Shown here piece by piece: positions 44,265-59,921 of a stretch of 64,000 bases of DNA. Under the pieces are notes generated by a model, which was not told the DNA's origin, made no database searches, and worked only from the letters and a program-made list of their open reading frames with translations. A program made the position numbers and the translations under genes. Positions within the stretch are counted from its first letter, which is position 1. Each line of letters starts with the position of its first letter. This stretch comes from Candidatus Bathyarchaeota archaeon. GTDB lineage: Archaea > Thermoproteota > Bathyarchaeia > Bathyarchaeales > Bathycorpusculaceae. Location of the stretch: NCBI GenBank assembly GCA_963707955.1, contig OY970176.1, positions 1,216,001 to 1,280,000 on the forward strand, read 5' to 3'.

Positions 44265-47200
44265 TTATGGGTAGTGTTGTCCGAAGTTGGCGCAGGCGAT
44301 GATTATGTCGCTCATGTCGATTTTGCCGTTGCCGTTTATGTCGCAGTTTGGATTATAATTCGGCTGTCCGACTGTTGAACCAAACGCCAAGCAGAGGCTG
44401 ATTATGTCGCCCACGTCAACTCTGCCGTTTCCGTCAACGTCGCCTGGAATCGTTAAGATCACATTGCCGCCTGTGTAGTTGTTGTTTGAAATGTTCGTTT
44501 CGCCCGGAACAGGCCAGGCGTAGGCGCTTATGGTGTAGTTGCCGTAGGGATAGCCTGCAGTGTTCAAAACGAAGGTAATGTTTAACGAGTTTCCGCTTGA
44601 CAAGGTGACGTTCTGTGAGGAAGCAAAAGCCATGGTGACGTTTTCTGAAGCGATAAAGAGGCTGGCATAGACTGTTACGTTGAACGTTTCTGGGAGATCG
44701 CCCAAGTCTGCTGCTGTAACGGTTACGTTCAGGCCGTCGCCTTGGCCGACCACGCACTTCGATGAATTAACATTGGTGACGGCTACGTCATGGATATGCA
44801 CGGTGACAGACGCGTTGTCAGACGTTGCCTGCACTCCGACGCTGTCGGTGACATTCACATAGACTGTGTGGAAACCTACAGATGTAGGAGTGAAAACCCA
44901 TGTTGCGTTTGTGGCGCCAGAAACGGGGACGCCGTCTAGGTACCACTGATAAGAGTAGGGAGACGTACCGCCCGTGATGCTCGACGTGAAGAGTTGAGAC
45001 TGACCAACAACCACACCGATTAAAGTGGGCGAAACACTGACCAAGGGCGAAGGGTTAACGATGACGGTAGTGACGTTGGATTCTGCCATAGACCCAACAC
45101 CGTCCGTTACGTTAACGTAGACGTTGTAGAAGCCAATAGAGATTGGCGTAAAGGTCCACGTGAAACCCGTGGCACCCTGCACTTCTGAGCCGTTCAAGTA
45201 CCATTGGTATGTGAACGACGAAGTGCCGCCAGAGACTATGGAAGTGAATAAGTGCGATTGGCCCGTGTCTACAGCAACAGAGGTGGGCGTTATGCTGATT
45301 GAAAGTGGCTCGTTCACTGTCACTGGAACACTATTGGACATTGCAACGGCGCTCACTGAGTCTGTGACGTTTAAGTAGACCGTGTAAGAGCCTGCGGATG
45401 CTGGCGTAAACGTCCACGTAATACTCGTGGCACCTGAGACGGGAGAACCATTCAAATACCATTGATACGAGTAGGCAGACGTGCCACCTGAGACAGTTGA
45501 GGTGAAGAGTTGAGACTGACCGAAATCCATCGTGACTGAAGGCGGCGAGACAATGACCGAAAGCTGCCTATTCACAGTAATTAGAACAGTATTGGAAGTT
45601 GCCGCCTGGCCCGATGCGTCAGTGACATTCAAGTAAACCGTGAAAGAACCTGAAGAAGAAGGCATAAACGTCCATGCACTGCCAGTAGCACCTGAGACTT
45701 GGGTGCCGTTCAGGTACCACTGATAAGAGTAAGGCGACGTGCCACCTGACACGCCACAGGTGAACAGTTGAGACTGACCAAGATCCATCGTGATGGAAGG
45801 GGGCGAGATAACGACCGAAGGCTGCTTATTCACAGTGACACTCGCAAAAGTAAGGTCACTGAATCCGACGCTGTCAGTGACCTCGACGTAAACAGCATAG
45901 TAACCTGAGAGTGTAGGCGTGAACGTCCAAGTTGCGTTGGTGGCTCCAGGAACGACAGCACTGTTAAGAAGCCATTGGTACGTGTACGGTGAGATGCCTC
46001 CAGAAACTGTGGATACGAAGAGTTGAGACCCGCCGACATCCATAGTGATTGAAGCTGGCGAAACATTAACTGAGGGCCACGGATAAACATTGACGGAAGC
46101 GGTGCTAGATTCTGCTGTAAACCCAGCATTGTCGGTTACGTTAACGTAGATGCTGTAAAAGCCAGATGAACTCGGCGTAAAGGTCCAGCCGCTAAAAACG
46201 GCTCTTGAAACCGGTGTGCCATTCAAACACCATTGATAAGAGTATGCTAACGCACCTCCTGAAGCGACCGAATTGAATAACTGTGACTGGTCGACCTCCA
46301 AGGTTGCGGAGCTAGACGAAATGTTAACAGAAAGCGAATTAGCGCAGTAAGGATTCATCAAAGGATAATTGTCCACGTCGGCAGAACCAATCGTGTACGG
46401 CGTGTCCCCTATCCCGTCGCTTCCAATCAAGTTCTGGCTTGGGCCACACATTATGTCTTGACCGTTGTAGTCGCTCCAAAAGTTTCCGCCTGAAGGATAA
46501 CCGTTATCCCAGTAGTTTGCTGGCGAAGGATGCGGTTCATCCCACGCCACGTACGCGTTGAGCACGTTGCTCAAGAGGTTGTTGTGGAAAATGTAGTTTG
46601 ACCAACAATCATAAACGTAGACGCCGTACTCGTTTGAAGTCAAATTGTTGCCAACTACGTAATTGTAGTAGGAACAGTAGAGTACTACGCCGCCGAAGTT
46701 GGACGATACGGAGTTTGCCAAGCTGTTCGCGCTCACGTTGTTGTAGCATGAGTAGTAAAGCCAAACTCCCGCCCAAGTGTTCGCAGATACGTTGTTTCCA
46801 CTCAAGACGTTGTACTGCGAGCCCACTATGTAGACCCCGTAACTGTTGCCAGACAGGTTGGCTTCAAACACGCAGCAGCTCGAGCACCCTGACTCATAAA
46901 TCCCGAAAAAAAACGACCTTACCGACACGTTCCTAATCGTCACGTCGCTCAAGCCACTGAGGTAGATCCCGTTCGAGCCCGTGACCATTCCTCCCTGAAC
47001 CGTGTGTCCTCCTCCGTCCAAGACCGTGTTGTTTCTTTCGACCACGATTCCGTTGTAAGCTGGGTAGCTCACGTTGCCGGTGATTGTGTAAGTTTTACTA
47101 TCAGAAGTTACGATGGGAGCTCCAGACGGGGTGATAGAACCATCAGCGTTAATGTAAACCGTCGCAGCCTGTGCGCGCACCAGCCCAACGTTAAACGCCA

Positions 47201-47279
47201 ATGCCAACATGCTTGTTACGAGCAAAACCAGCATTACCCCGGAAACAGGCTTCCGCAAGAACCCGAACCCCCCCTCCAA
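44265..47279 (-). CDS. large secreted protein: NosD/beta-helix, six Ig/PKD-like repeats, CARDB-like domain and C-terminal dockerin-type EF-hand pair
   Basis: Signal peptide; GIxL/N-rich beta-helix, WDNGYPSGGNFWSDY, six YxYQWxLN/DG repeats, GDVDGNGRVD/CDINGNGKID. Confidence 0.85.
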   Translation of the reverse strand: MEGGFGFLRKPVSGVMLVLLVTSMLALAFNVGLVRAQAATVYINADGSITPSGAPIVTSDSKTYTITGNVSYPAYNGIVVERNNTVLDGGGHTVQGGMVTGSNGIYLSGLSDVTIRNVSVRSFFFGIYESGCSSCCVFEANLSGNSYGVYIVGSQYNVLSGNNVSANTWAGVWLYYSCYNNVSANSLANSVSSNFGGVVLYCSYYNYVVGNNLTSNEYGVYVYDCWSNYIFHNNLLSNVLNAYVAWDEPHPSPANYWDNGYPSGGNFWSDYNGQDIMCGPSQNLIGSDGIGDTPYTIGSADVDNYPLMNPYCANSLSVNISSSSATLEVDQSQLFNSVASGGALAYSYQWCLNGTPVSRAVFSGWTFTPSSSGFYSIYVNVTDNAGFTAESSTASVNVYPWPSVNVSPASITMDVGGSQLFVSTVSGGISPYTYQWLLNSAVVPGATNATWTFTPTLSGYYAVYVEVTDSVGFSDLTFASVTVNKQPSVVISPPSITMDLGQSQLFTCGVSGGTSPYSYQWYLNGTQVSGATGSAWTFMPSSSGSFTVYLNVTDASGQAATSNTVLITVNRQLSVIVSPPSVTMDFGQSQLFTSTVSGGTSAYSYQWYLNGSPVSGATSITWTFTPASAGSYTVYLNVTDSVSAVAMSNSVPVTVNEPLSISITPTSVAVDTGQSHLFTSIVSGGTSSFTYQWYLNGSEVQGATGFTWTFTPISIGFYNVYVNVTDGVGSMAESNVTTVIVNPSPLVSVSPTLIGVVVGQSQLFTSSITGGTSPYSYQWYLDGVPVSGATNATWVFTPTSVGFHTVYVNVTDSVGVQATSDNASVTVHIHDVAVTNVNSSKCVVGQGDGLNVTVTAADLGDLPETFNVTVYASLFIASENVTMAFASSQNVTLSSGNSLNITFVLNTAGYPYGNYTISAYAWPVPGETNISNNNYTGGNVILTIPGDVDGNGRVDVGDIISLCLAFGSTVGQPNYNPNCDINGNGKIDMSDIIIACANFGQHYP
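44800..46340 (-). repeat. six tandem ~258-bp (86-aa) Ig-like repeats
   Basis: Recurring SQLF...SGG..YSYQWYLNG...WTFTP...YVNVTD; boundaries approximate. Confidence 0.85.
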
Positions 47280-48998: not shown

Positions 48999-49021
48999 GA
49001 TACTGTCCACTTAATCGGGAT
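48999..49021 (+). repeat. left terminal inverted repeat GATACTGTCCACTTAATCGGGAT
   Basis: Exact reverse complement of 55569-55591; starts like IS6-family ends (IS26 GGCACTGT). Confidence 0.92.
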
Positions 49022-49079: not shown

Positions 49080-49598
49080 TTAGCCTTCCGAGATATGTTT
49101 CTTTATTTTGTCCCTCATTACCCCTTTTAGCTTACTCAAACGGTCCGTAATTTCAATATTTGCTTGGTCTTCTGGAGGAAGGTCCGCGAACCACTCTTCA
49201 TACTCGTCTTCCTCACCTAGGTCGGGGGGTTCTCCATATATCTCAATTTGTTTCTCCGTAAGGAAGGTGTCAATGTCGTCTATTTCCTTTTTCAATTCCT
49301 CTCTCAGTTTTTCAGGGAGGAAGAGTCCAGTACTGCCATCCAGAAAAACAGTAACGGCATTTCGAAAATCGGGAAAACTCTTGTAACCCTGTTTTAATAA
49401 TTCATCGAGCTTTACTAGGGCATCTTTTCTGTCCTCATGATACAGTTGCATTCTTGTAATTGTCAGACTTAGTTCTCGTTGAGTTTTAAGGCTCTTTTCA
49501 GAAAAGTAATGCGCTATGATTTGTGTAACGATTGCTATTACAACTCCAGAAATCAGCGGGAAAATATACAGGCTGTAATCGGACAAAAGCATTCCCAA
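49080..49598 (-). CDS. hypothetical cargo protein with N-terminal TM helix
   Basis: 172 aa; hydrophobic N-terminus followed by a helical, acidic region. Confidence 0.65.
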   Translation of the reverse strand: MGMLLSDYSLYIFPLISGVVIAIVTQIIAHYFSEKSLKTQRELSLTITRMQLYHEDRKDALVKLDELLKQGYKSFPDFRNAVTVFLDGSTGLFLPEKLREELKKEIDDIDTFLTEKQIEIYGEPPDLGEEDEYEEWFADLPPEDQANIEITDRLSKLKGVMRDKIKKHISEG

Positions 49599-49659: not shown

Positions 49660-51033
49660 TCATGGTTGGTTTTGATTTTGGTTTCGCAGTAGTTCCTTCA
49701 CTGTGATTGTTTTGATCTCAATGTTATCGTGTAGTCCCGCTCTCGCGACTTCGCCAAAAGCACCCTTGCCGAAACTGAAGGCCACGATTGTTCCCTTCTT
49801 CGCATTTCTTCTCCTGATTGCAGTCTCAAAATTGTCAACCACGTTTCTACCAATATCATCCGACTGCTTAACCTGAATGGGATCGCCTTCAAAGGTAAAA
49901 CCATCAATGCCCATGTCTGAACTTTTCCTTTGTGACACTCTACCGAAAAGCCTCTGAACAACCCAATTCTGAAACTCGAACGCTGGCAGTTTTCTCAGAT
50001 CCTCTTCAGTCATAGGCATGCCCATGACACTGGGCGACACATGCAATTTCCTAAATCTCTTCTCCATAAGTTTGCATGCTGTTGGAGAAACGTCTATTCC
50101 TGCCCATTGCCTTCCAAACTTATGAGCTACTACGATAGCTGTGCCACATCCACAAAAAGGGTCGAGAACAATATCCATCGCATTAGAAGAAGTTTTGATG
50201 ATTCGTTCTAAGAGAAGTTCAGGCTTTTGTGTGGGGAAACCGAAACTCTCTCTAGAAGTTGAAACAGGGTTCACGTCATCCCATAAGTCTTGAAATGGAA
50301 CGCCTTTCATTTCGTCCAGATACCTCTTGTATCTGGGGACGTTGCCTTTCTTTGTCTGGACGATTCGACCTTCTTTGTACAGCTTCTCCATCGTCTCTTT
50401 GCTATATCGCCAGTATCTTGTTACGCCTAAGAACTCATATCTTGGGTTTCCTTTCGCTGCTCCACCAGGCCCATCTATTGCGGTGAGCTGGTATCTTCTC
50501 CCTGTTTCATGTTCTACGTGTCCGTAGAACTTATCTTTTGATTCCTCAGTGAAAGGCAAGTATTGCTGATTCCAAGTGTAGTCTTTAGATTTGGCATAGA
50601 ACAGTATAACATCATGTATTCTACCATAGTGTTTCGCTCCCTGTTTCGCGTCACTGTGCTTTGCAACCTGTCTTTTCCACACAATCTCGTTTACGAAGTT
50701 AGTCTCTCCGAATAGCCTGTCCATTTCATACTTCAAATAATGCGAAGCGTGCCAATCGCAATGAAGATACATCGAGCCAGTCTTTTTGAGAACTCGATAA
50801 CATTGAGTAAGCCTTTCAACCATCCAAGCAACATAATAGTCTAAACCGCCTTTCCATCTGTCCTCGAAAGCTCTAAGCTCATATCCGTCTCCCCAGATGA
50901 TTTCGTAACGTCTGTTGGAAAAGAAAGGCGGATCAGCATAAATCAAATCGACAGATTCGTTCGGAAACTTGCTCAAAACATCCTTGCAATCGCCACAATA
51001 GATTGTGTTAGGTCTGAAATATGGAATAGTCAT
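49660..51033 (-). CDS. N6A/N4C DNA methyltransferase (beta class) fused to a C-terminal Mrr-like endonuclease domain
   Basis: DPPF (motif IV) precedes DPFCGCGT (motif I); FPTQKP; C-terminal FEF..DMGIDG..IQVKQ. Confidence 0.9.
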   Translation of the reverse strand: MTIPYFRPNTIYCGDCKDVLSKFPNESVDLIYADPPFFSNRRYEIIWGDGYELRAFEDRWKGGLDYYVAWMVERLTQCYRVLKKTGSMYLHCDWHASHYLKYEMDRLFGETNFVNEIVWKRQVAKHSDAKQGAKHYGRIHDVILFYAKSKDYTWNQQYLPFTEESKDKFYGHVEHETGRRYQLTAIDGPGGAAKGNPRYEFLGVTRYWRYSKETMEKLYKEGRIVQTKKGNVPRYKRYLDEMKGVPFQDLWDDVNPVSTSRESFGFPTQKPELLLERIIKTSSNAMDIVLDPFCGCGTAIVVAHKFGRQWAGIDVSPTACKLMEKRFRKLHVSPSVMGMPMTEEDLRKLPAFEFQNWVVQRLFGRVSQRKSSDMGIDGFTFEGDPIQVKQSDDIGRNVVDNFETAIRRRNAKKGTIVAFSFGKGAFGEVARAGLHDNIEIKTITVKELLRNQNQNQP

Positions 51034-51290: not shown

Positions 51291-51442
51291 TGCTTTCCCT
51301 TCGTAGGTAAATATCCTTTCTCAGATAGAAAAGCTATGACTATAGTTCTTACTATCTCTGAATCACTTTCGCCGAAAGTGCCTTTCAGATTGTCCACGAT
51401 TTTCTTTATCTCATCTGGAAGACTTAACAAGATTCTTTTCAT
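51287..51442 (-). CDS. ribbon-helix-helix (CopG-like) regulator, not in the supplied ORF track
   Basis: MKRILLSLPDEIKKIVDNLKGTFGESDSEIVRTIVIAFLSEKGYLPTKGKQ (51 aa); ATGA overlaps on both sides. Confidence 0.8.
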   Translation of the reverse strand: MKRILLSLPDEIKKIVDNLKGTFGESDSEIVRTIVIAFLSEKGYLPTKGKQ

Positions 51443-52332
51443 TTAGCTACCACCTCTATCGGTTTTTCGTTCACTGTTCTATTCTCTCCACTCGTTGCCT
51501 TGAATTTGGTTGCTTCTTTTACTATTGTGTGCCAATCGTTCTTCATAGTTAATCCAGAGGCCTGAGCAGGAGTCATTCCAAGAGTCTGATGCTTTCGTAC
51601 ATAGTCATAGTGAACTGCCCAACCTTCTAGTAGTGTCCTTACTGTGTCTTCTCCTTTCAAACCTCGCGTTGGCCTCAAACGGTCTTTCAACGTGCCATGC
51701 AGTCTTTCAACAGCATTCTGATTATGAATCGCCCTTATTCCCACTCTTCTGATTAGCTCGGGTCTGCCTTCTTTCTTCATTGTATAGAAGACCTTGTTGA
51801 ATCCATCTATGTAAGCTGGCAAGCCATCACAGTAAATTGAAACTGGCTTTCTCTTAGCTACTCTGATGCTTTTCTCGAAAAGTGCTATCGCGTCTTCGGT
51901 TGTTCTTGAACCTGACAAGTGACCTGTAACCAGAAACTTTGTCTGATCATCGATGATTTCCCAGAACCACTTCTGAACACCCTTACACTTGATCGCGGTT
52001 TCATCAACGTGATAAATGCCTAGAAGATGTGGTGTTAAGGTTTCTACATACTCAGCGCACAGTTTTGAATATTTCATGATCCATTTCCAGATTGCAGACT
52101 TGCCTATCTGAATGCCAAAAATCTTTTGAAGCTGATTCTGAACCTTTCTGATGCTAAGTCCTTCGTAATACATGTCAATTGCCGTGGAAATGATTCGGGA
52201 CTCCACACGCATTTTTGGAAAGTCCGAACCTTCAACAAACTTGTGTCCACAAGAGCGACAAACGAACTGTTGCTTGCCCTTCACTTTGCCATCCTTAACG
52301 ACTTTCTCTGAGCCACAATACTTGCATGGCAT
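51439..52332 (-). CDS. IS6-family DDE transposase with N-terminal zinc ribbon and HTH
   Basis: CKYC..CRSC, GLSIRKV HTH, and catalytic triad HVDET / CDGLPAY / NAVERLH; ORF open from 52428. Confidence 0.92.
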   Translation of the reverse strand: MPCKYCGSEKVVKDGKVKGKQQFVCRSCGHKFVEGSDFPKMRVESRIISTAIDMYYEGLSIRKVQNQLQKIFGIQIGKSAIWKWIMKYSKLCAEYVETLTPHLLGIYHVDETAIKCKGVQKWFWEIIDDQTKFLVTGHLSGSRTTEDAIALFEKSIRVAKRKPVSIYCDGLPAYIDGFNKVFYTMKKEGRPELIRRVGIRAIHNQNAVERLHGTLKDRLRPTRGLKGEDTVRTLLEGWAVHYDYVRKHQTLGMTPAQASGLTMKNDWHTIVKEATKFKATSGENRTVNEKPIEVVAK

Positions 52333-52346
52333 CGTTATATCACCAG

Positions 52347-52376
52347 AGTCATATACAGTATATAACTGGTTTATAA
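52347..52376 (-). promoter_or_regulatory. TATA box and 21-bp imperfect palindrome upstream of the transposase
   Basis: Minus-strand TTATAAA (52370-52376) followed by AGTTATATAC-T-GTATATGACT, 15 bp before the ATG. Confidence 0.55.
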
Positions 52377-52436
52377 GCTTTGCTCTTTTTGATTCTGTCG
52401 AGCCCGTGTCATAGACTGTCTTGAGCAAGTGAGGTG

Positions 52437-53591
52437 CTACACTACGTGTTGAAGTATTATTTCGGTATTTTGTTTCCTTTCAAGAAGCTGTGCTTTATCG
52501 TTTCTGTTCTTTAACGGATAGACACTGAAAGCTTCCTCAAAACTGTGGGCTTTTTTGAATTTCTTCACTAACCCCTTGTATGGTGGAAACGCTCCACCGT
52601 ACCCAAGTATTCGTCTTGCCTTGCCGATCAATTTCAAGTGGTAATCAGTCCATAATGGAGATATAAAACAGTTCTTCTCCAACGCATTCAGTGGTTCATA
52701 CCTCATTGGATATGACACACAGCCTAAATCTGCGATGTGCTTTATTCTTTCAAAAAATGTCGCGGGTATATCGCTATGATATTTTTTGTTGTAGAAATTG
52801 TATAGAGTATATATGAAGATTTTTCGTCTTCTTATACCGCTTTTCGAAAGAATATCTATAGCATTAGTGAGTGCTCTCTTCTCACCAATGTCGTCAAAAG
52901 CAGTTCGAATTAGGGGTGTTTTTAAATCAGCGATCATACGGGCTTTTTCATCATCAACCAGACGAGCATCAACGCCCTGATTGAAATCAACAGGCAATCC
53001 TATGTCCAGTAGTTCATTGAGTATTTTTTTCCAGTTTGACATTGCAAAGAAATTATTGTCCCATAAGATAATCCGCTTGTAATCTGGATAGATATAACGC
53101 TCAAGATCTTCCACAACTCCGTGGATCTTTCCTTCCAACTTTGGAACAATGCAATAAGGGCAACTTCGAATGCATCCTCTTGAAGTGAATAGGATTGTGC
53201 TGTCCCATTTTTCCCATTCCTTTACTTCTTTTAAGAGGTCATATGCTGGCAGGTAGCCATCTGCCTCCTTACAAAGACCGATATTAATATCTATGAATGG
53301 AAAAAAAGATCTAAGTCTACGCGACATTAACGAAGCATATATACCTCCAACCCGTATTTTTGCACCACTAAATTTGGTGTGATAGAATTTTATGGCTTCG
53401 TGGACTGGTTTCCAAGCATAAGTGAATAACGACGTGATTTCGATGCGATCTGGACTAAACTTCAAGTCTTCTTGAATATCACGCACGAGTTTTACTTGGT
53501 TCCCTCTGGAACGATGATATGAAGCAAGCTTCAATAAGCCTAATGGAGGGAATTTCGTGTAATATGCAGGTTCAACAAGCAGAACTTTCAT
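52437..53591 (-). CDS. radical SAM protein with N-terminal B12-binding-like domain
   Basis: PPLGLLKLASY, GGIYASL, TSRGCIRSCPYC (CxxxCxxC), WDNN and DFNQGVDARL motifs; ORF open from 53675. Confidence 0.88.
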   Translation of the reverse strand: MKVLLVEPAYYTKFPPLGLLKLASYHRSRGNQVKLVRDIQEDLKFSPDRIEITSLFTYAWKPVHEAIKFYHTKFSGAKIRVGGIYASLMSRRLRSFFPFIDINIGLCKEADGYLPAYDLLKEVKEWEKWDSTILFTSRGCIRSCPYCIVPKLEGKIHGVVEDLERYIYPDYKRIILWDNNFFAMSNWKKILNELLDIGLPVDFNQGVDARLVDDEKARMIADLKTPLIRTAFDDIGEKRALTNAIDILSKSGIRRRKIFIYTLYNFYNKKYHSDIPATFFERIKHIADLGCVSYPMRYEPLNALEKNCFISPLWTDYHLKLIGKARRILGYGGAFPPYKGLVKKFKKAHSFEEAFSVYPLKNRNDKAQLLERKQNTEIILQHVV

Positions 53592-53674
53592 AGGATAGGT
53601 AGTGCTTACGTTATTCTTAAAGTTTCCTATAAAATTGGAAAAAGGATCCAAATCCTTGAAACCGGAGGATCCCA

Positions 53675-55435
53675 TTAGGTCTTGAGCTTAGACTTCTCTA
53701 TTAATCGGAGAATGAGATCTTGTGTCATATGAAAGTCTGTTAAGATGTCGATTTTTTCTTCTTTAGTCATCAATTCATAGAATGCGAAAGAAGGTTTTCC
53801 TTTTTCATGCTTTGAGGTGTTGACAAACAACTCATGGAGTGCATCAATCATAACTCCGAAGAGACGATCGCGATATTCCTCTGACAAAAGAAGCTTTGGA
53901 TTATCACCCTTTTGTACTTCTTTCCAGCCATAAGCTTTTTTGGATAAGTCGCATATTGAATCGAGTGTTGTCAAGCCTGTTTTTCGTTGAAGAAGTTCTT
54001 TCACTGGGTTCATTGCATCAATATCAAATTCCGTCTTTCCCTTCTTTGTGGTCTTCTCAAGATGCTTCTTCAAGTCAGGATGGGATGTTTTGATAAATTC
54101 ATTGAATCTATCCGTTTTTTCTTTGATGATGTCTGTGGGCTGTTCCTTTATTTTGTCTTGAACCGTTTTTTCCAGTGTTTTCAGAAAGGTTCTATTGGTC
54201 GCGGATTTCTTATTGATGACTTCTTTCATTCCTTGAAGTGCTTGTTCCGTTGGAAAACTTCGCTTTCGCTGCAACTTCTTTTTCAGATGTACGATTCTCT
54301 CATGTGCTGGCTTCACCTCACCAATCTCTATTTGTTTCTTTATTTGCTCGATTGGCCTGGTCACGATATTGTCTGATTGGTATTGATTCATCAATTGCAG
54401 TTGACCCACAAATTCGCCCACTTGTTGGTAGAACGGTTCGATTATCTCATTGTTTGCTTCGAAATTATTGCGGGGTGCATTTTCCTTTAGTGCGTCAAGG
54501 ATTATGTGAATTTCCCCATATTGCCATTGATTATAGTTTCCTGGATGCAGGTTTGAGACAAGGTTTTCATCTCCAATGGTGAACCCTTTTTTCTTGAAAC
54601 AGATTCCCCTATTTGGCGGATCCAGTTTACGGTTGGTTTTGCTTGAAAGAACCCATCCATATGCAACAGTTTCATTTTTGACAATGAATTTCTTCTCTAT
54701 GATTTTGTTGAAGAAAACGTTGTCGTTGTCTGGTGGACGAAAGATTTGTTGTTTCTCAAAAAAGATAGGCGTTTCTTGGATTTTGACATCATTTGCTGAA
54801 AGTTTCTTGGCAATCTCTTTTCCTAAAGTGAATTTCCCTGTATCGAAAGGAGCAGGAACAGTAGTGGAAAGATATTCTCTTACGGCTTTTTCTGTGAAAA
54901 TTGAACGTTGGTTCGGCAAAATGTCCTCAAGCCGAATCGTTGTGAATTGTGAGTTTTCAATGGATTCATCGCCACCTGTTTCTAACTCTTCTATATCTCC
55001 TGTCACGTCAGTTAACACTCTCGCAGCTGAAATATTGAGATTGTATTGTTGACGCAATTTATCAGCATCAATTTGGACTCGAAGTTTTGGGTGATTTTGT
55101 TTCTTAGTAATTATCACGATTCTTCGACAAGCAGGAATCCCGCTCCAAATTCCAATTCCTCTCCAACCAATCGCGCCAGGAGGTTTCTCGCTTATGCCGA
55201 GATAAAGTGCTTCCTCAAGTTTCCCCTTGTCCATTCCACACCCATTATCTTCGATAACCAAAACAGTTTGATTCTCAAAATATACATCGATTCTATTTGC
55301 CCCTGAATCAATACAATTCTGAACATACTCGCGCAGACAATTCAGATTTCCATCATAAAGCCCCGCTGTAATTGCCTCAATGAGTTTGGCCCCAAAAGAT
55401 TCATCGGTAAATTTAACCAAGGAAAACTCCCTCAA
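53675..55435 (-). CDS. GHKL (Hsp90/MORC/MutL-like) ATPase
   Basis: REYVQNCID (N box), EDNGCGM (G1) and IGWRGIG (G2), then an S5-like region and coiled coil. Confidence 0.88.
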   Translation of the reverse strand: MREFSLVKFTDESFGAKLIEAITAGLYDGNLNCLREYVQNCIDSGANRIDVYFENQTVLVIEDNGCGMDKGKLEEALYLGISEKPPGAIGWRGIGIWSGIPACRRIVIITKKQNHPKLRVQIDADKLRQQYNLNISAARVLTDVTGDIEELETGGDESIENSQFTTIRLEDILPNQRSIFTEKAVREYLSTTVPAPFDTGKFTLGKEIAKKLSANDVKIQETPIFFEKQQIFRPPDNDNVFFNKIIEKKFIVKNETVAYGWVLSSKTNRKLDPPNRGICFKKKGFTIGDENLVSNLHPGNYNQWQYGEIHIILDALKENAPRNNFEANNEIIEPFYQQVGEFVGQLQLMNQYQSDNIVTRPIEQIKKQIEIGEVKPAHERIVHLKKKLQRKRSFPTEQALQGMKEVINKKSATNRTFLKTLEKTVQDKIKEQPTDIIKEKTDRFNEFIKTSHPDLKKHLEKTTKKGKTEFDIDAMNPVKELLQRKTGLTTLDSICDLSKKAYGWKEVQKGDNPKLLLSEEYRDRLFGVMIDALHELFVNTSKHEKGKPSFAFYELMTKEEKIDILTDFHMTQDLILRLIEKSKLKT

Positions 55436-55568: not shown

Positions 55569-55591
55569 ATCCCGATTAAGTGGACAGTATC
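55569..55591 (-). repeat. right terminal inverted repeat
   Basis: ATCCCGATTAAGTGGACAGTATC, reverse complement of 48999-49021. Confidence 0.92.
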
Positions 55592-55613
55592 AGGTCCGAG
55601 GGGACTTGAAACC
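55592..55613 (-). other. possible tRNA 3'-end remnant (att-like)
   Basis: Minus strand GGGTTTCAAGTCCCCTCGGACCT resembles a T-arm plus acceptor 3' strand, with one extra T; no 5' half. Confidence 0.35.
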
Positions 55614-55634
55614 CACGGGGTGAATTTGTACTGT

Positions 55635-55694
55635 TTCCCCTTTTTTCTGTCGCCGTGTACATGCTTTAGTGTTTATGGCTCTGTCCTTATCATA
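55635..55694 (+). repeat. 60-bp direct repeat, copy 1
   Basis: 50/60 identical to 59950-60009 by manual alignment. Confidence 0.8.
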
Positions 55695-56316
55695 TTGGAG
55701 AAGCCATGACAGGCCTAACCTCTCAACCCAACCTTCTTGAAGATTTGCAGCGATCTAGAACTGTGAGTTCAAGCAGCCCCATCACTCTGGAACTGAATAT
55801 GTACCGCTTCCTCAATCATTTTCCCATTTTTGTAATTTAACCGAAGCACGCAGATGCTTTTGTTCTCCAGTCTCGCTGGGTTCCGGTTGCCGGTTTCTCC
55901 CGGGCTACCAAAAGCGCAAGCGTGAATTTATACTGAATTTCTTCCTTTTTTGGAAGCCTAGCCTTGAAGTGAGCTGGCCCCTATGCTCGGCAGGGGCTAG
56001 AGCATCAAGAAGATCTTGAGTCTCTTGCGCACCATACGTATCAACACTCATTTCTAATCACCATAAAGCTGTAATAGTCGCAAGAAACGAAAATTAGAAC
56101 AAGCGCGCTTTTTCAGAGCTGGGGACTTTCATCCTCACGAGAATTGGGACTCCCTACGATGAACGTCGCAACAAGGATGCGAGCCTGAACAATCCAAAAA
56201 GTGAAGGAAATACTGCGATAGAAAGGCTTAAGTCTGACCGGAGAAAAGCAGAACTTGAGGCGAGGATCATTCGACATTTCCGCGCTGGTTACATTCTGAT
56301 TCTGTTAACGCCATTC

Positions 56317-57314: not shown

Positions 57315-59921
57315 ATGCAAAAGAAAAGCTTTTTGCGCTTAGCAACAATTTGTTTTGCAGTAATGCTTTTAGTTGTCTTCATGCCCGCGCCTAAGGTTTC
57401 AGCTTCTGGAGCTTCTGGAGGCCCGACACTGTGGTGTAACCCCGAGCCCCTATTTGAACCCACGTACTTGGACTATTCGGCAGGGTATGCATTGCTCGCA
57501 GACCCTCCGACGTATTTGAATCTAGCTGCGTCGGCGTTACAGGTCACAGTGTCCTTCGCTGAGGCGGCTAACTTGGTAGGATACCTCGGAAAGGGGAATT
57601 ATTTGGGAGCTGGGATGACCACGACGAGCTTCGACCGCATCAATACAGGCGGGTGGTATGCTATAGATTACGGCTGGAGTTACGTCGTGTACATTAATGA
57701 CAGCGGCGGACCCTATATCAACATGGAGTGCTGGCAACTGGGGGAATACACTGGACAAAGCACGTGTTTGCTCACTGAAGGGTACTATAACCCTTCAATT
57801 TCCATCTCTGATGACATTACCTTAACTATGCAATGGGACGGTGCATCTGTTATCTTCTCCGTTCAGGACGGTTCTTTGAATGAAATCGTATATACTTTTA
57901 CGACAAGCTCACGTATGGCGCAATACTTTGAGGTGGGTTCTATTGGAAACGGCATTCCAGTGGTGGGCGGCCTGTTACCCACTGTCAAATACTTTCAGTT
58001 TGTGGGCGCTTGGAGCCCTTGCGCAGACCCGGGAACGAACCTCGATTGGACTACTTACCTATCTAATCCGCAGTTTATGCTTACGGGTGAAACTACGTGG
58101 ACGGAAGTCTGGATCGCATATACGACAACAGGTACCGATTCGGCACTCGACAACGGGTGGAGTTGGGGGTGGATACCAGGCTTTGACGATATCTATGTCA
58201 CGGGTGGTTATGATACGGATATGTTCGGAGTCATCAACGACCTCTATGTTGGATTCACGCACTATGCAAACCAGCAAATATATTCTGGCAATGGTGCTTG
58301 TTTGTGGGACATCCCGCCGGTCAACCTTCAGATTTCCATCGGCTCTGGTTCTGGTTCAATCAATCCTTCCGCAGGAAGCTATTCCTACAATTTTAGCACT
58401 TGCGTAACGGTCAGCGCGAATCCTGCCACCGGTTATTGGTTTAATCACTGGCTCCTTGTACTTAACGGCGAAGGCAACCTACCAACAGAGTCGTGGGAGT
58501 GTGCATCCCTTGACTGGTCGTTTTGTATGAACGCTTCCTATTCGCTGACCGCATACTTCACTCCTAATCCAACTCTGACTATTTCAGTTTCAGGTTCAGG
58601 TTCAACCACCCCGTCAGGAACGTTTTCCTGTTGCCACGGCTCTACCGTTACGGTTACGGAAATTCCATCGAGCGGTTATGCTTTTGCCTATTGGTTGCTC
58701 GACTCGACAACGTACTACTATACCACTTCGATTACCGTGACGATGGGGCACCATAGCCATTCGCTGACAGCATACTTCGTCGTTTATTATCCAACGTTGA
58801 ACATTTCAGCTTCGAGCGGCGGAACGACAATACCCATCCCAGGACAGTACTCCGAAAGCTACGGCAGTAGCGTGAACGTCACGGCTAACCCATATCCAAA
58901 TTACGCTTTTCAGTATTGGTTGCTTGATCAGGTAGTCAATATCAACAATCCAATAACTGTGGATATGACGGCTGACCATTCGCTGACCGCATACTTCAAC
59001 TACGTAGGTGGCGGAGGCGGGGGAGACGGGTGCCCGTACGTTTACGATTGGAACGGCTCGGCTTATGTGAAGGATAACAATATTCTGCCAGCGTCCGAAA
59101 CGGGCAACGGCACCGACACCAAAGACTACTGCCTGCTTCAACTGCAGCTCGTTCCAGTTTTCACCGCCAAAAAAGAGTCTGTGTACTCTCTGCAGATAGG
59201 CGAGTTTGAAAGCGAGATCGATTACATCGACCAGGTGAAACTCATGGCGGTCGACCATTCGCAGGGCACAAACGTGGCCGTGACGCCTGAAGGCCAGATC
59301 CTCACGTACACGAACCCGGCCAGCCCAATCTCGGCCATCGACAACAACGGCGTCAGCCAGCTGAGCGAGATAGCGACGATGAACGGCAACGTCAGCGACC
59401 CCTCCACGTACTTCCAGGGCAACACGGGAGACTGGCTGCTGCTGGACCTTGGCAAGGTCACAGGGCCATACGCCAACCTCATCCTAAGAGACGACATGAA
59501 TTGCGAGAAGATATGCTTGGACGTGCAGGTGCTCAACGCATCTGGCGACTGGCAGACGGTTGAAACGCTGCATCCCCGAGCCTACTGGAGCATTGAAGCC
59601 GCTAACATGGCTGCCTACTTGCCCAAAACGGGCGACTTCAAAGTCAGACTCTACTGGACGACGCCCCACAGGCTCGACTACGTGGGCCTAGACACCTCAC
59701 CGCCAGCTCCAGTGCAAGTGAACTCTGCACCCCCAACACTGGCCATCCACTCAACCATGGGAGACGTGACCCAAAAGCTGCTGTACGACGACGAACAGTG
59801 CGTGAAACTCGTCAACGGCCAGCACATAACACTCTGGTTCACACTGCCCAGCCAAGCGCAAGGCACAACAAGAAGCTTCATCCTATACACAGACGGCTAC
59901 TACTACACCATAACACCATAG
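57315..59921 (+). CDS. large secreted protein: unique N-terminal domain, three InlB-B/Flg_new-like repeats, Gly linker and CPYVYxWNG C-terminal domain
   Basis: Signal peptide; repeated G.T.P..G...VTA.P..GY.F.YWLL...HSLTAYF; GGGGGDGCPYVYDWNG. Confidence 0.8.
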   Translation: MQKKSFLRLATICFAVMLLVVFMPAPKVSASGASGGPTLWCNPEPLFEPTYLDYSAGYALLADPPTYLNLAASALQVTVSFAEAANLVGYLGKGNYLGAGMTTTSFDRINTGGWYAIDYGWSYVVYINDSGGPYINMECWQLGEYTGQSTCLLTEGYYNPSISISDDITLTMQWDGASVIFSVQDGSLNEIVYTFTTSSRMAQYFEVGSIGNGIPVVGGLLPTVKYFQFVGAWSPCADPGTNLDWTTYLSNPQFMLTGETTWTEVWIAYTTTGTDSALDNGWSWGWIPGFDDIYVTGGYDTDMFGVINDLYVGFTHYANQQIYSGNGACLWDIPPVNLQISIGSGSGSINPSAGSYSYNFSTCVTVSANPATGYWFNHWLLVLNGEGNLPTESWECASLDWSFCMNASYSLTAYFTPNPTLTISVSGSGSTTPSGTFSCCHGSTVTVTEIPSSGYAFAYWLLDSTTYYYTTSITVTMGHHSHSLTAYFVVYYPTLNISASSGGTTIPIPGQYSESYGSSVNVTANPYPNYAFQYWLLDQVVNINNPITVDMTADHSLTAYFNYVGGGGGGDGCPYVYDWNGSAYVKDNNILPASETGNGTDTKDYCLLQLQLVPVFTAKKESVYSLQIGEFESEIDYIDQVKLMAVDHSQGTNVAVTPEGQILTYTNPASPISAIDNNGVSQLSEIATMNGNVSDPSTYFQGNTGDWLLLDLGKVTGPYANLILRDDMNCEKICLDVQVLNASGDWQTVETLHPRAYWSIEAANMAAYLPKTGDFKVRLYWTTPHRLDYVGLDTSPPAPVQVNSAPPTLAIHSTMGDVTQKLLYDDEQCVKLVNGQHITLWFTLPSQAQGTTRSFILYTDGYYYTITP

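Follow-up and report, generated by a model that had tools for sequence, protein, structure and literature searches.

A 64,000-nucleotide stretch of the genome of a Candidatus Bathyarchaeota archaeon (assembly GCA_963707955.1, contig OY970176.1, positions 1,216,001 to 1,280,000 of the forward strand; hereafter the window, from whose first letter all coordinates are counted) carries, side by side on its minus strand, a gene for a GHKL ATPase (53675..55435) and a gene for a radical S-adenosylmethionine (SAM) enzyme (52437..53591). Comparison of the two genes with their homologues indicates that they are one functional two-gene module, horizontally mobile between archaea and bacteria, and that this module is related to the restriction-modification (RM) modules built around MORC-type ATPases, except that its catalytic member is a radical SAM enzyme. 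The best-supported reading of its function, to which we give about an even chance of being right, is that of a DNA-modifying module, in which the radical SAM enzyme would mark DNA and the ATPase, acting as a clamp, would either deliver the enzyme or read the mark.

Two genes inherited together

We examined the pairing of the two genes from both of its sides. Starting from the radical SAM enzyme, a set of 53 loci (one genome per species, several of them without room upstream) contained a GHKL homologue in 19 cases, and in 15 of those 19 the GHKL gene lay directly upstream of the radical SAM gene, on the same strand and with a gap of no more than 99 nt. Starting from the ATPase, co-occurrence was nearly obligate: among 80 metagenome loci, 60 had at least 1000 bp of sequence downstream, and 59 of these 60 contained a radical SAM gene, which followed directly in 49. 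The single locus lacking one has a truncated GHKL gene. Pairwise distances among the ATPases were correlated with those among their partner enzymes (Mantel r 0.72 over 58 pairs, a value reached in 0 of 999 permutations), the mean distance being 0.57 for GHKL and 0.41 for the radical SAM protein. In a FastTree phylogeny of 116 radical SAM sequences, the window enzyme fell in a clade of 19 rows (SH-like support 96), 14 of them GHKL-linked, and the sister clade of 25 rows had mixed partners. A preliminary description of this DNA had put the two genes forward as a pair and had asked whether their homologues co-occur; by these measures the pair is a real, conserved and co-inherited unit.

The distribution of the 53 loci is patchy. 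Archaeal carriers are found in the Methanosarcinales, Methanothrix, Methanomicrobia, Thermoplasmata and Bathyarchaeia and in one Asgard archaeon, and bacterial carriers in the Dehalococcoidia, Zixibacteria, WOR-3, Omnitrophota and Clostridia. Within the phylum of the window, a full-length GHKL gene of the window type was present in 2 of 401 genomes, and within its own family a GHKL match, a partial one, was present in 1 of 25.

The radical SAM gene is read here from the start that is conserved in its family, giving 384 aa; the longest open reading frame (ORF) at this place (52437-53675, minus strand) encodes 412 aa, whose numbering is used below. Since the score of the Pfam Radical_SAM profile (PF04055) was under its cut-off (19.7 bits against 29.5, E 0.001), the identity of the protein is drawn from a match to phrog_9298, 'radical SAM domain protein' (E 2.6e-63), from a predicted model (pLDDT 78) and from the folds that this model resembles. 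The closest of these were AprD4 (Z 22.3), MgmA (Z 21.1), MiaB (Z 20) and TsrM (Z 19), and the core resembles many radical SAM structures at Z 8-22, which places the protein in the superfamily. Its CxxxCxxC motif (C168, C172 and C175) is unvaried in 16 aligned sequences and across 13 distant relatives, and C319 is the only other invariant cysteine in the 16-sequence alignment. The N-terminal domain is B12-binding-like: taken alone (residues 28-140), it matches the corrinoid-binding domains of AerR (Z 10.4), 1y80 (Z 9.5), MetH (Z 9.2) and MtaC (Z 8.6). The corresponding Pfam family, PF02310, was found in several homologues (in that of L057 at 33.9 bits, for a cut-off of 32.1), and the Pfam scan of the window's own protein did not report it.

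A Rossmann-like, corrinoid-type N-terminal domain joined to a CxxxCxxC core is the architecture of the B12-domain radical SAM enzymes MgmA (9ccb), TsrM (6wte), CysS, TokK and OxsB, and of AprD4 (6fd2); structures of this kind match the window enzyme at Z 14-22 over 310-360 residues, with 12-16% identity. Unlike them, the window enzyme belongs to no NCBIfam or Pfam family above cut-off. NCBIfam scans gave sub-threshold matches only, for this protein and for the ATPase, a search of PDB sequences with a profile of the enzyme returned only matches at E 0.04-0.06, and PADLOC-DB 2.0.0 held 0 families matching it at E ≤0.01. The preliminary label, 'GHKL ATPase plus B12-type radical SAM', is thus right at the level of fold, and both genes are real. 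Its further term, 'cobalamin-dependent', is a suggestion of the predicted fold only, and AprD4, the top structural match, is cobalamin-independent though it has the same domain. To our knowledge, the known members of the B12-domain group act on proteins, antibiotics or nucleoside analogues, and none acts on DNA. An assignment to the MiaB/RimO methylthiotransferases was considered and rejected: the three N-domain cysteines of the auxiliary cluster are lacking, TIGR00089 scored 16.8 bits against a cut-off of 251, and the alignments to MiaB end at about model residue 368, short of a TRAM domain.

The ATPase (586 aa) is of the GHL type, with MORC and Hsp90 as its nearest structural relatives. Pfam HATPase_c_3 (PF13589) matches its N-terminus at E 6.4e-13 (49.3 bits, cut-off 25), and the motifs of the Bergerat fold (E36/N40/D43, D63xGxG67 and G90xR92-G93xG95) are unvaried across 18 aligned homologues. 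In the predicted structure (pLDDT 83), a Bergerat domain and an S5-like middle domain, together about residues 1-330, are followed by a long helical tail (332-586), so that the protein has the ExxxNxxD, DxGxG and GxxGxG motifs and then the S5-like transducer domain of a GHL ATPase. Foldseek searches with the model returned TRAP1/Hsp90, MORC3, MORC2 and MORC4 at E 2e-13 to 1e-11 over 400-460 columns. The MORC/Hsp90 architecture of this protein is seen in its fold matches, and its likeness to MORC is one of predicted fold only. Judging from the upstream sequence, translation may start at a TTG four codons inside the annotated ORF.

Candidate identities for the ATPase among described families were tried and rejected. 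TIGR00585 (MutL) scored 31.9 bits against a cut-off of 180, and only over residues 29-77. The N-terminus has weak MzaB-like matches (PADLOC E 1.2e-8; NCBIfam NF041932 22.5 bits), the latter far under its cut-off of 850, and the scanned neighbours gave no match to an Mza model. A GHKL N-terminal domain is what the window ATPase has in common with MZA (through MzaB) and with Tiamat; unlike an MZA system, the window locus has no MzaA, MzaC, MzaD or MzaE gene. The statement that the pair is not a named defence system stands, in that PADLOC has no model for the radical SAM protein and only the weak N-terminal MzaB-like match for the ATPase.

The closest described setting is that of the MORC and paraMORC ATPases of the GHKL+S5 type, which Iyer, Abhiman & Aravind 2008 reported in RM operons with helicases, methylases and nucleases (PMC2292703). 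As these proteins are portrayed in the available text of that paper, the window ATPase is like them in its N-terminal GHKL domain with intact ATP motifs and its S5-like middle domain, in being sporadic, laterally mobile and linked to DNA-modifying or DNA-cutting genes, and in possessing, towards the end of the S5-like region, a conserved motif of acidic and histidine residues, which here is the GEIH...R motif (G307-E308-x-H310) conserved in the GHKL homologues. The paraMORC2 motif is printed there as ExxxH, whereas ours is ExH, and the MORC-specific S5 motif as GhXhhpXXRhl. Whereas the operons of that paper join the ATPase to a superfamily-II helicase, a methylase or an endonuclease, the partner here is a radical SAM enzyme. 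The word 'radical' occurs nowhere in its main text, the supplementary neighbourhood lists being outside this check. More generally, we found no paper that analyses this pair or the radical SAM family, and the supplements of PMC2292703 and of bioRxiv preprints may list such neighbourhoods.

One clause in a 2026 preprint, the sole mention that turned up, probably refers to the same GHKL and radical SAM core in an immune context; the identity of the family could not be verified. In contrast to that mention, the window pair has no third gene between or beside its members, and five other loci have one. This third gene encodes 277-341 aa (L034:7008-7841, L045:9347-10372, L186, L234 and L235), and its proteins gave weak matches to the NCBIfam PP_RS20740 family and no Pfam match; that of L045 had no match among PDB sequences. 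It may be the PAACC of the preprint.

A conserved spacer ahead of the radical SAM gene

According to the preliminary description, the two ORFs abut through a TAA/ATG overlap at 53675. The letters TAATG are indeed present, but as a true gene junction the overlap is not borne out. All 15 aligned radical SAM homologues begin at the equivalent of M29 (the ATG at 53591), the gap between the two genes is 41-98 nt in 14 other loci, and the supposed N-terminal extension of the enzyme contains an in-frame stop in L005 and in L021, the latter from Methanohalophilus euhalobius WG-1MB. Moreover, contigs of three public runs (from one study, possibly of the source sample) have one additional A behind position 53638, which would put the ATG at 53675 out of frame with the core of the enzyme. 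This discrepancy is a difference in homopolymer length, and it alters which upstream ATG is in frame. From the homologue starts, the gaps, the in-frame stops and the extra A, we take the genes to be adjacent, with a conserved spacer of some 84 nt most likely lying between them.

The spacer (53592..53674, minus strand) was delimited from alignments, and its conservation at the DNA level extends over archaea and some bacteria. Its layout is that of two RGATCY sites about 17-20 nt apart, a T-run, and a TATA-like box (TTTAAG/TTTATA) about 30 nt before the radical SAM ATG; in the window, both sites are GGATCC palindromes, at 53644-53649 and 53667-53672. The double RGATCY motif was present in 32 of 44 distinct spacers, compared with 31 of 2200 control segments drawn from the same loci, and it occurs once in the window. 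An RNA hairpin or terminator in the spacer was considered and rejected, as the RNAalifold consensus contained 0 pairs; the idea of a hairpin was therefore replaced by that of an element acting at the level of DNA. The spacer is probably a regulatory region that acts as DNA and gives the radical SAM gene its own promoter, so that this gene would be regulated by it apart from the ATPase. It may serve as an operator, or its own modification state may switch the radical SAM gene.

DNA as the putative substrate

Another way to view the radical SAM enzyme is through the wider family to which it belongs, which comprises 3502 homologues (2089 representatives at 50% identity). Genes of sister enzymes share an operon, all on one strand, with a type IIG restriction-methylase (PADLOC E 0), with a HerA-like ATPase and a NurA-like gene, the type seen in L047 of Desulfovirgula thermocuniculi DSM 16036, with an OLD/AriA-like ATPase, with ParB_N and a 503-aa protein of no known kind, or with a DndB-like gene and an SNF2 helicase. 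The trio of NurA, HerA and radical SAM genes also occurs in a temperate virus, Marinitoga camini virus 1, where the resolvase and repressor genes are close by. More telling still, a C5-cytosine DNA methylase (PF00145) is fused to the radical SAM enzyme in 4 of 29 long relatives, P0153 being an example of such a fusion; one of these methylases is complete (E 5e-57, with the catalytic PCQ motif), and in another fusion the radical SAM part is apparently inserted within the methylase variable region. Phages of anaerobes commonly carry the family, relatives of which occur at no fewer than 501 viral-contig loci, and Bacteroides phages are among the carriers. In true phage genomes the enzyme has a shorter form, encoded in early or replication regions, with genes for DNA methylases, ParB_N, SNF2, PD-(D/E)XK and DUF5131 proteins as neighbours. 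Examination of the neighbourhoods of radical SAM homologues, which had been suggested as a check, thus backs a DNA-directed role: because of the sister operons with DNA enzymes and the C5-methylase fusions, the family contexts point to DNA as the substrate and, in some branches, more narrowly to cytosine or 5-methylcytosine (5mC). For the GHKL-linked clade, the same substrate would hold by extension.

Around the pair itself, we scanned up to five called ORFs of at least 100 aa on each side and took raw counts, without a control set. An integrase, an IS element or a defence-type gene was near the pair at 10 of 15 loci. The defence-type neighbours were a group with Vsr, MutH-like, C5 methyltransferase and CAP12-TIR genes, GmrSD_N, ResIII with AAA_15, an REase_MTES_1575 helicase, a D12 methyltransferase, HD_assoc and AAA_14, and some neighbours were OLD-like ATPases and helicase-nucleases.

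In the mechanism that we favour, the enzyme would act on DNA by means of a radical derived from its [4Fe-4S] cluster and SAM, possibly with cobalamin, and would add a modification to a base or build on one already there; across the whole family, the candidate substrate with the best support would be a methylated or flipped-out cytosine. The MORC/Hsp90-like ATPase would be an ATP-driven dimeric DNA clamp, which either delivers the enzyme to its DNA target or recognises the mark and works against foreign DNA lacking it. As a reader of the mark, it would stand in place of the NurA-HerA, type IIG, or ParB/DndB-like and SNF2 components of the sister operons. In that case the module would amount to a minimal unit of self-marking or defence, based on modification, from which its carrier element would profit as well.

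A precedent for such chemistry is gp53 of phage M6, a radical SAM enzyme that carries out base editing on DNA and that, in the account of Lee et al. 2021, is the first of its kind found to install a DNA modification (PMC8989533). The likeness lies in the phage-borne relatives of the window enzyme and in the action of gp53 on a base within polymer DNA. Unlike the window enzyme, however, gp53 is described in the same account as a photoproduct-lyase-like isomerase of thymidine hypermodification, not of the B12 type, and as working in a 5-hydroxymethyldeoxyuridine (5-hmdU) pathway with a kinase and pyridoxal phosphate (PLP) enzymes, none of which we saw here (PMC8989533). A second comparison is with the Dnd/Ssp phosphorothioate and Dpd 7-deazaguanine systems, which, in the part of the source that treats them, combine one modification set with interchangeable ATPase, helicase and nuclease arms (PMC10853773). 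In keeping with this, DndB/ParB-like and SNF2 (DpdE/ZorD-like) genes adjoin sister radical SAM genes; unlike those systems, there are no DndA, DndC, DndD, DndE, DpdA or DpdC genes, and the modifier would be a single radical SAM protein.

Several observations weigh against a DNA-modifying module of this kind. Pfam and Foldseek recognised no nuclease domain in the GHKL protein, which, unlike Tiamat as presented in the available text (10.64898/2026.09.30.754977), also has no PD-(D/E)xK or NOV_C domain. A restriction arm is therefore not evident in the two-gene form, and the absent nuclease is the weakest point in the 'restriction' half of the proposed model. The best fold matches of the enzyme include the RNA- and protein-modifying enzymes MiaB, RimO and MgmA, so that its fold gives no pointer to DNA. 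The C5-methylase fusions and most of the methylase neighbours belong to branches that are 30-36% identical to the window enzyme and lie outside the GHKL-linked clade, and a DNA-methylase-like gene near the pair is the exception (2 of 19 genome loci, 4 of 80 metagenome loci). At 5 of the 15 scanned pair loci, the neighbours were only housekeeping or unassigned genes. Finally, both the Mantel correlation of 0.72 and the co-occurrence counts overstate independence, as related sequences share ancestry.

These observations also bear on how far other explanations can account for the pair. If it were a sensor-effector system of the abortive-infection type, the GHKL protein would sense invading DNA or a phage protein and activate the radical SAM enzyme, which would then damage DNA through radical abstraction of hydrogen or produce a toxic or chain-terminating nucleotide, with no self-marking. 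A two-gene cassette on mobile elements and near defence genes fits the usual form of such systems, the faster evolution of the ATPase (0.57 against 0.41) is often seen in sensors, and viperin provides a precedent for an antiviral radical SAM enzyme, though it matches the core only (Z 9.5-9.7). We nevertheless consider such a system unlikely, as a suicide effector makes little sense for the hundreds of lone relatives carried by phages in their replication regions, and the C5-methylase fusions suit modification better than damage. For an antiviral small molecule, which the preliminary description had offered as an option, we found nothing in favour, the match to viperin being confined to the core. 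A different use of the same chemistry would be modification without any restriction arm, with the enzyme, loaded by the ATPase, modifying transposon, phage or host DNA so as to escape restriction in new hosts. That no nuclease was found in the pair, that the phage relatives sit where orphan anti-restriction methylases usually lie, and that the pair is repeatedly transposon cargo are all in line with such 'stealth' cargo. The nucleases and translocases of the sister operons (type IIG, NurA-HerA, SNF2) are not, and the ATPase, for which this explanation offers no clear necessity, is retained in 59 of 60 loci; we think it improbable too.

The fold matches raise the question of whether DNA is involved at all. 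AprD4 is a sugar dehydratase, MgmA a protein methylase, and MiaB and RimO are methylthiotransferases of tRNA and of a ribosomal protein, while Hsp90/TRAP1 are the top structural matches of the ATPase, which might on these grounds be a dedicated chaperone or maturase of an enzyme that modifies RNA, protein or a metabolite. Against this stand the DNA enzymes that adjoin the family across clades, the fusions, which are to DNA methylases, and the cysteines, among which the invariant set of C168, C172, C175 and C319 leaves out the auxiliary cluster of the MiaB type; accordingly, we regard a target other than DNA as quite unlikely. Very unlikely, in our view, is a repair pair, in which a MutL/MORC-like clamp would recruit a radical enzyme to reverse a lesion in anaerobes. 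Spore photoproduct lyase is cited as a radical SAM enzyme of DNA repair (PMC8989533, in its available text), the GHKL protein has weak MutL-like matches at its N-terminus, and NurA-HerA, ParB and SNF2 proteins also occur in repair pathways. Spore photoproduct lyase, however, matches only the core of the window enzyme (Z 8.0), the patchy, transposon-borne and low-GC accessory distribution is unlike that of a repair gene, and the type IIG operons and C5-methylase fusions would be unexpected.

Returning to the DNA-modifying module, a more far-reaching version of it can be put forward tentatively, with a chance of being correct that is well short of even. The radical SAM family would carry out oxygen-independent hypermodification of DNA bases on flipped-out or clamped (methyl)cytosine, as the counterpart, in anaerobes and their phages, of TET/5mC oxidases, and the pair, dispersed by IS6-like transposons and switched via the RGATCY sites of the spacer, would form a new kind of minimal module, for modification-based immunity or for epigenetics. 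If the radical SAM enzyme does modify DNA, then it would stand for epigenetic marks of a chemically new class in habitats without oxygen (those of methanogens and of gut Bacteroides phages, and sediments), for an additional arm in the arms race between phage and host, and for an enzyme able to derivatise DNA at unactivated carbons. Its GHKL partner also offers an uncomplicated prokaryotic system in which to ask how MORC-type clamps work with a modifying enzyme, and the transposon design shows by what means such modules travel.

Some further arrangements were noticed among the viral and long relatives. In six contigs of the viral collection (L077, L085, L088, L094, L108 and L113), a cluster runs in the order DndB-like gene, small ORF, SNF2, DndB-like gene, long radical SAM gene and GHKL gene, so that the ATPase comes after the enzyme; the radical SAM proteins have 540-690 aa and the GHKL proteins 480-560 aa, and a serine recombinase gene lies beside the cluster in both of the loci that were scanned, L077 and L094. 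DUF5131 (Gp37/Gp68-type) genes were near a phrog_9298 radical SAM gene in 10 of 80 viral loci (for example L057:4858-5631 and L063:4762-5490). As DUF5131 is counted as a radical SAM subgroup by RadicalSAM.org (PMC9477430), some phages hold a pair of distinct radical enzymes within a single region. Of the 29 long relatives, 5 (P0156, P0166, P0169, P0230 and P0238) have inteins inside the radical SAM protein, with LAGLIDADG or HNH homing endonucleases.

The transposon-like unit and its surroundings

In the window, the pair is part of a 6.6-kb unit of five minus-strand genes, all in the same direction, bracketed exactly by perfect 23-nt inverted repeats. The left repeat (48999..49021) reads GATACTGTCCACTTAATCGGGAT and is 100% complementary over its 23 nt to the right one (55569..55591); this 23-mer is found exactly twice in the 2.35-Mb genome, at the two ends of the unit. 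The GC content of the unit is 0.39-0.45, compared with about 0.50 in the rest of the window. Beginning 8 nt past the radical SAM stop codon is a gene for an IS6-like DDE transposase with an N-terminal zinc ribbon (51439..52428, minus strand, 329 aa), which matches DDE_Tnp_IS240 (PF13610) at E 3.5e-20 (73 bits, cut-off 27) and the IS6 family model NF033587 at 121.1 bits, just under the cut-off of 125. An IS6/IS240-type DDE transposase between short terminal inverted repeats is the make-up of an IS6-family element, and the 5.6 kb of cargo are unlike a plain IS.

Next in the unit is a fusion of an N6_N4-type DNA methyltransferase and an Mrr-like nuclease (49660..51033, minus strand, 457 aa; PF01555 at E 5.3e-46, C-terminal Mrr_cat PF04471 at E 5.3e-5, PADLOC MTase_II at E 2e-64). 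Within the repeats, the series ends with a 172-aa ORF (49080..49598, minus strand) that had no Pfam, PADLOC or NCBIfam match. The pair had been said to travel with this methyltransferase-nuclease: the fusion is real and lies in the same unit, but the transposase gene intervenes and, with a methylase near so few pair loci, the association does not generalise. The same 2 of 19 and 4 of 80 loci led us to reject the idea that the pair and the fusion form one system.

The repeat design, by contrast, recurs at other loci. Perfect 23-24-nt repeats of their own, similar in sequence, bracket an IS6-like transposase together with GHKL and radical SAM genes in L014 (a Bathyarchaeota genome) and in the metagenome loci L163, L166 and L167, with the transposase on either side and in either direction, and in L162 an imperfect repeat pair surrounds GHKL and radical SAM genes alone. 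The pair is therefore recurrent cargo of an IS6-like transposon, and the methyltransferase-nuclease fusion and the 172-aa ORF are extra cargo of the window copy. Just inside the repeat of L014 is a 47-residue remnant of a gene similar to that of the fusion.

We looked for traces of the insertion itself. The usual target duplication of IS6 elements is 8 bp; the flanks of the unit contained none. Contigs of 4 runs included no joint that skips the element, the empty site could not be reconstructed from 30 genomes of the family, where the flanks match only short repeats, and the window contains no tRNA gene that could border an island. Among 6 runs checked for expression, no RNA run was listed. 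The genome contains four more related transposase copies or fragments. IS6-like copies at G000:C1:2028328-2029245 and 994819-995666 are broken by in-frame stops (TAG and TGA), one interrupted copy being 70% identical to the window transposase, and these are probably decayed copies.

Beyond the right repeat, the first ~100 nt (55592-55700) are 82-88% identical to several places in the genome (around G000:C1 1000209, 249423, 2124525 and 1275950) and constitute a short dispersed repeat, at which many assembly contigs break (loose ends at 55601-55668). Further out, large surface-type proteins flank the island, encoded at 44265-47279 on the minus strand and at 57315-59921 on the plus strand; one flank has NosD/beta-helix, PKD/Ig repeats and a dockerin, the opposite flank Flg_new_2 repeats.

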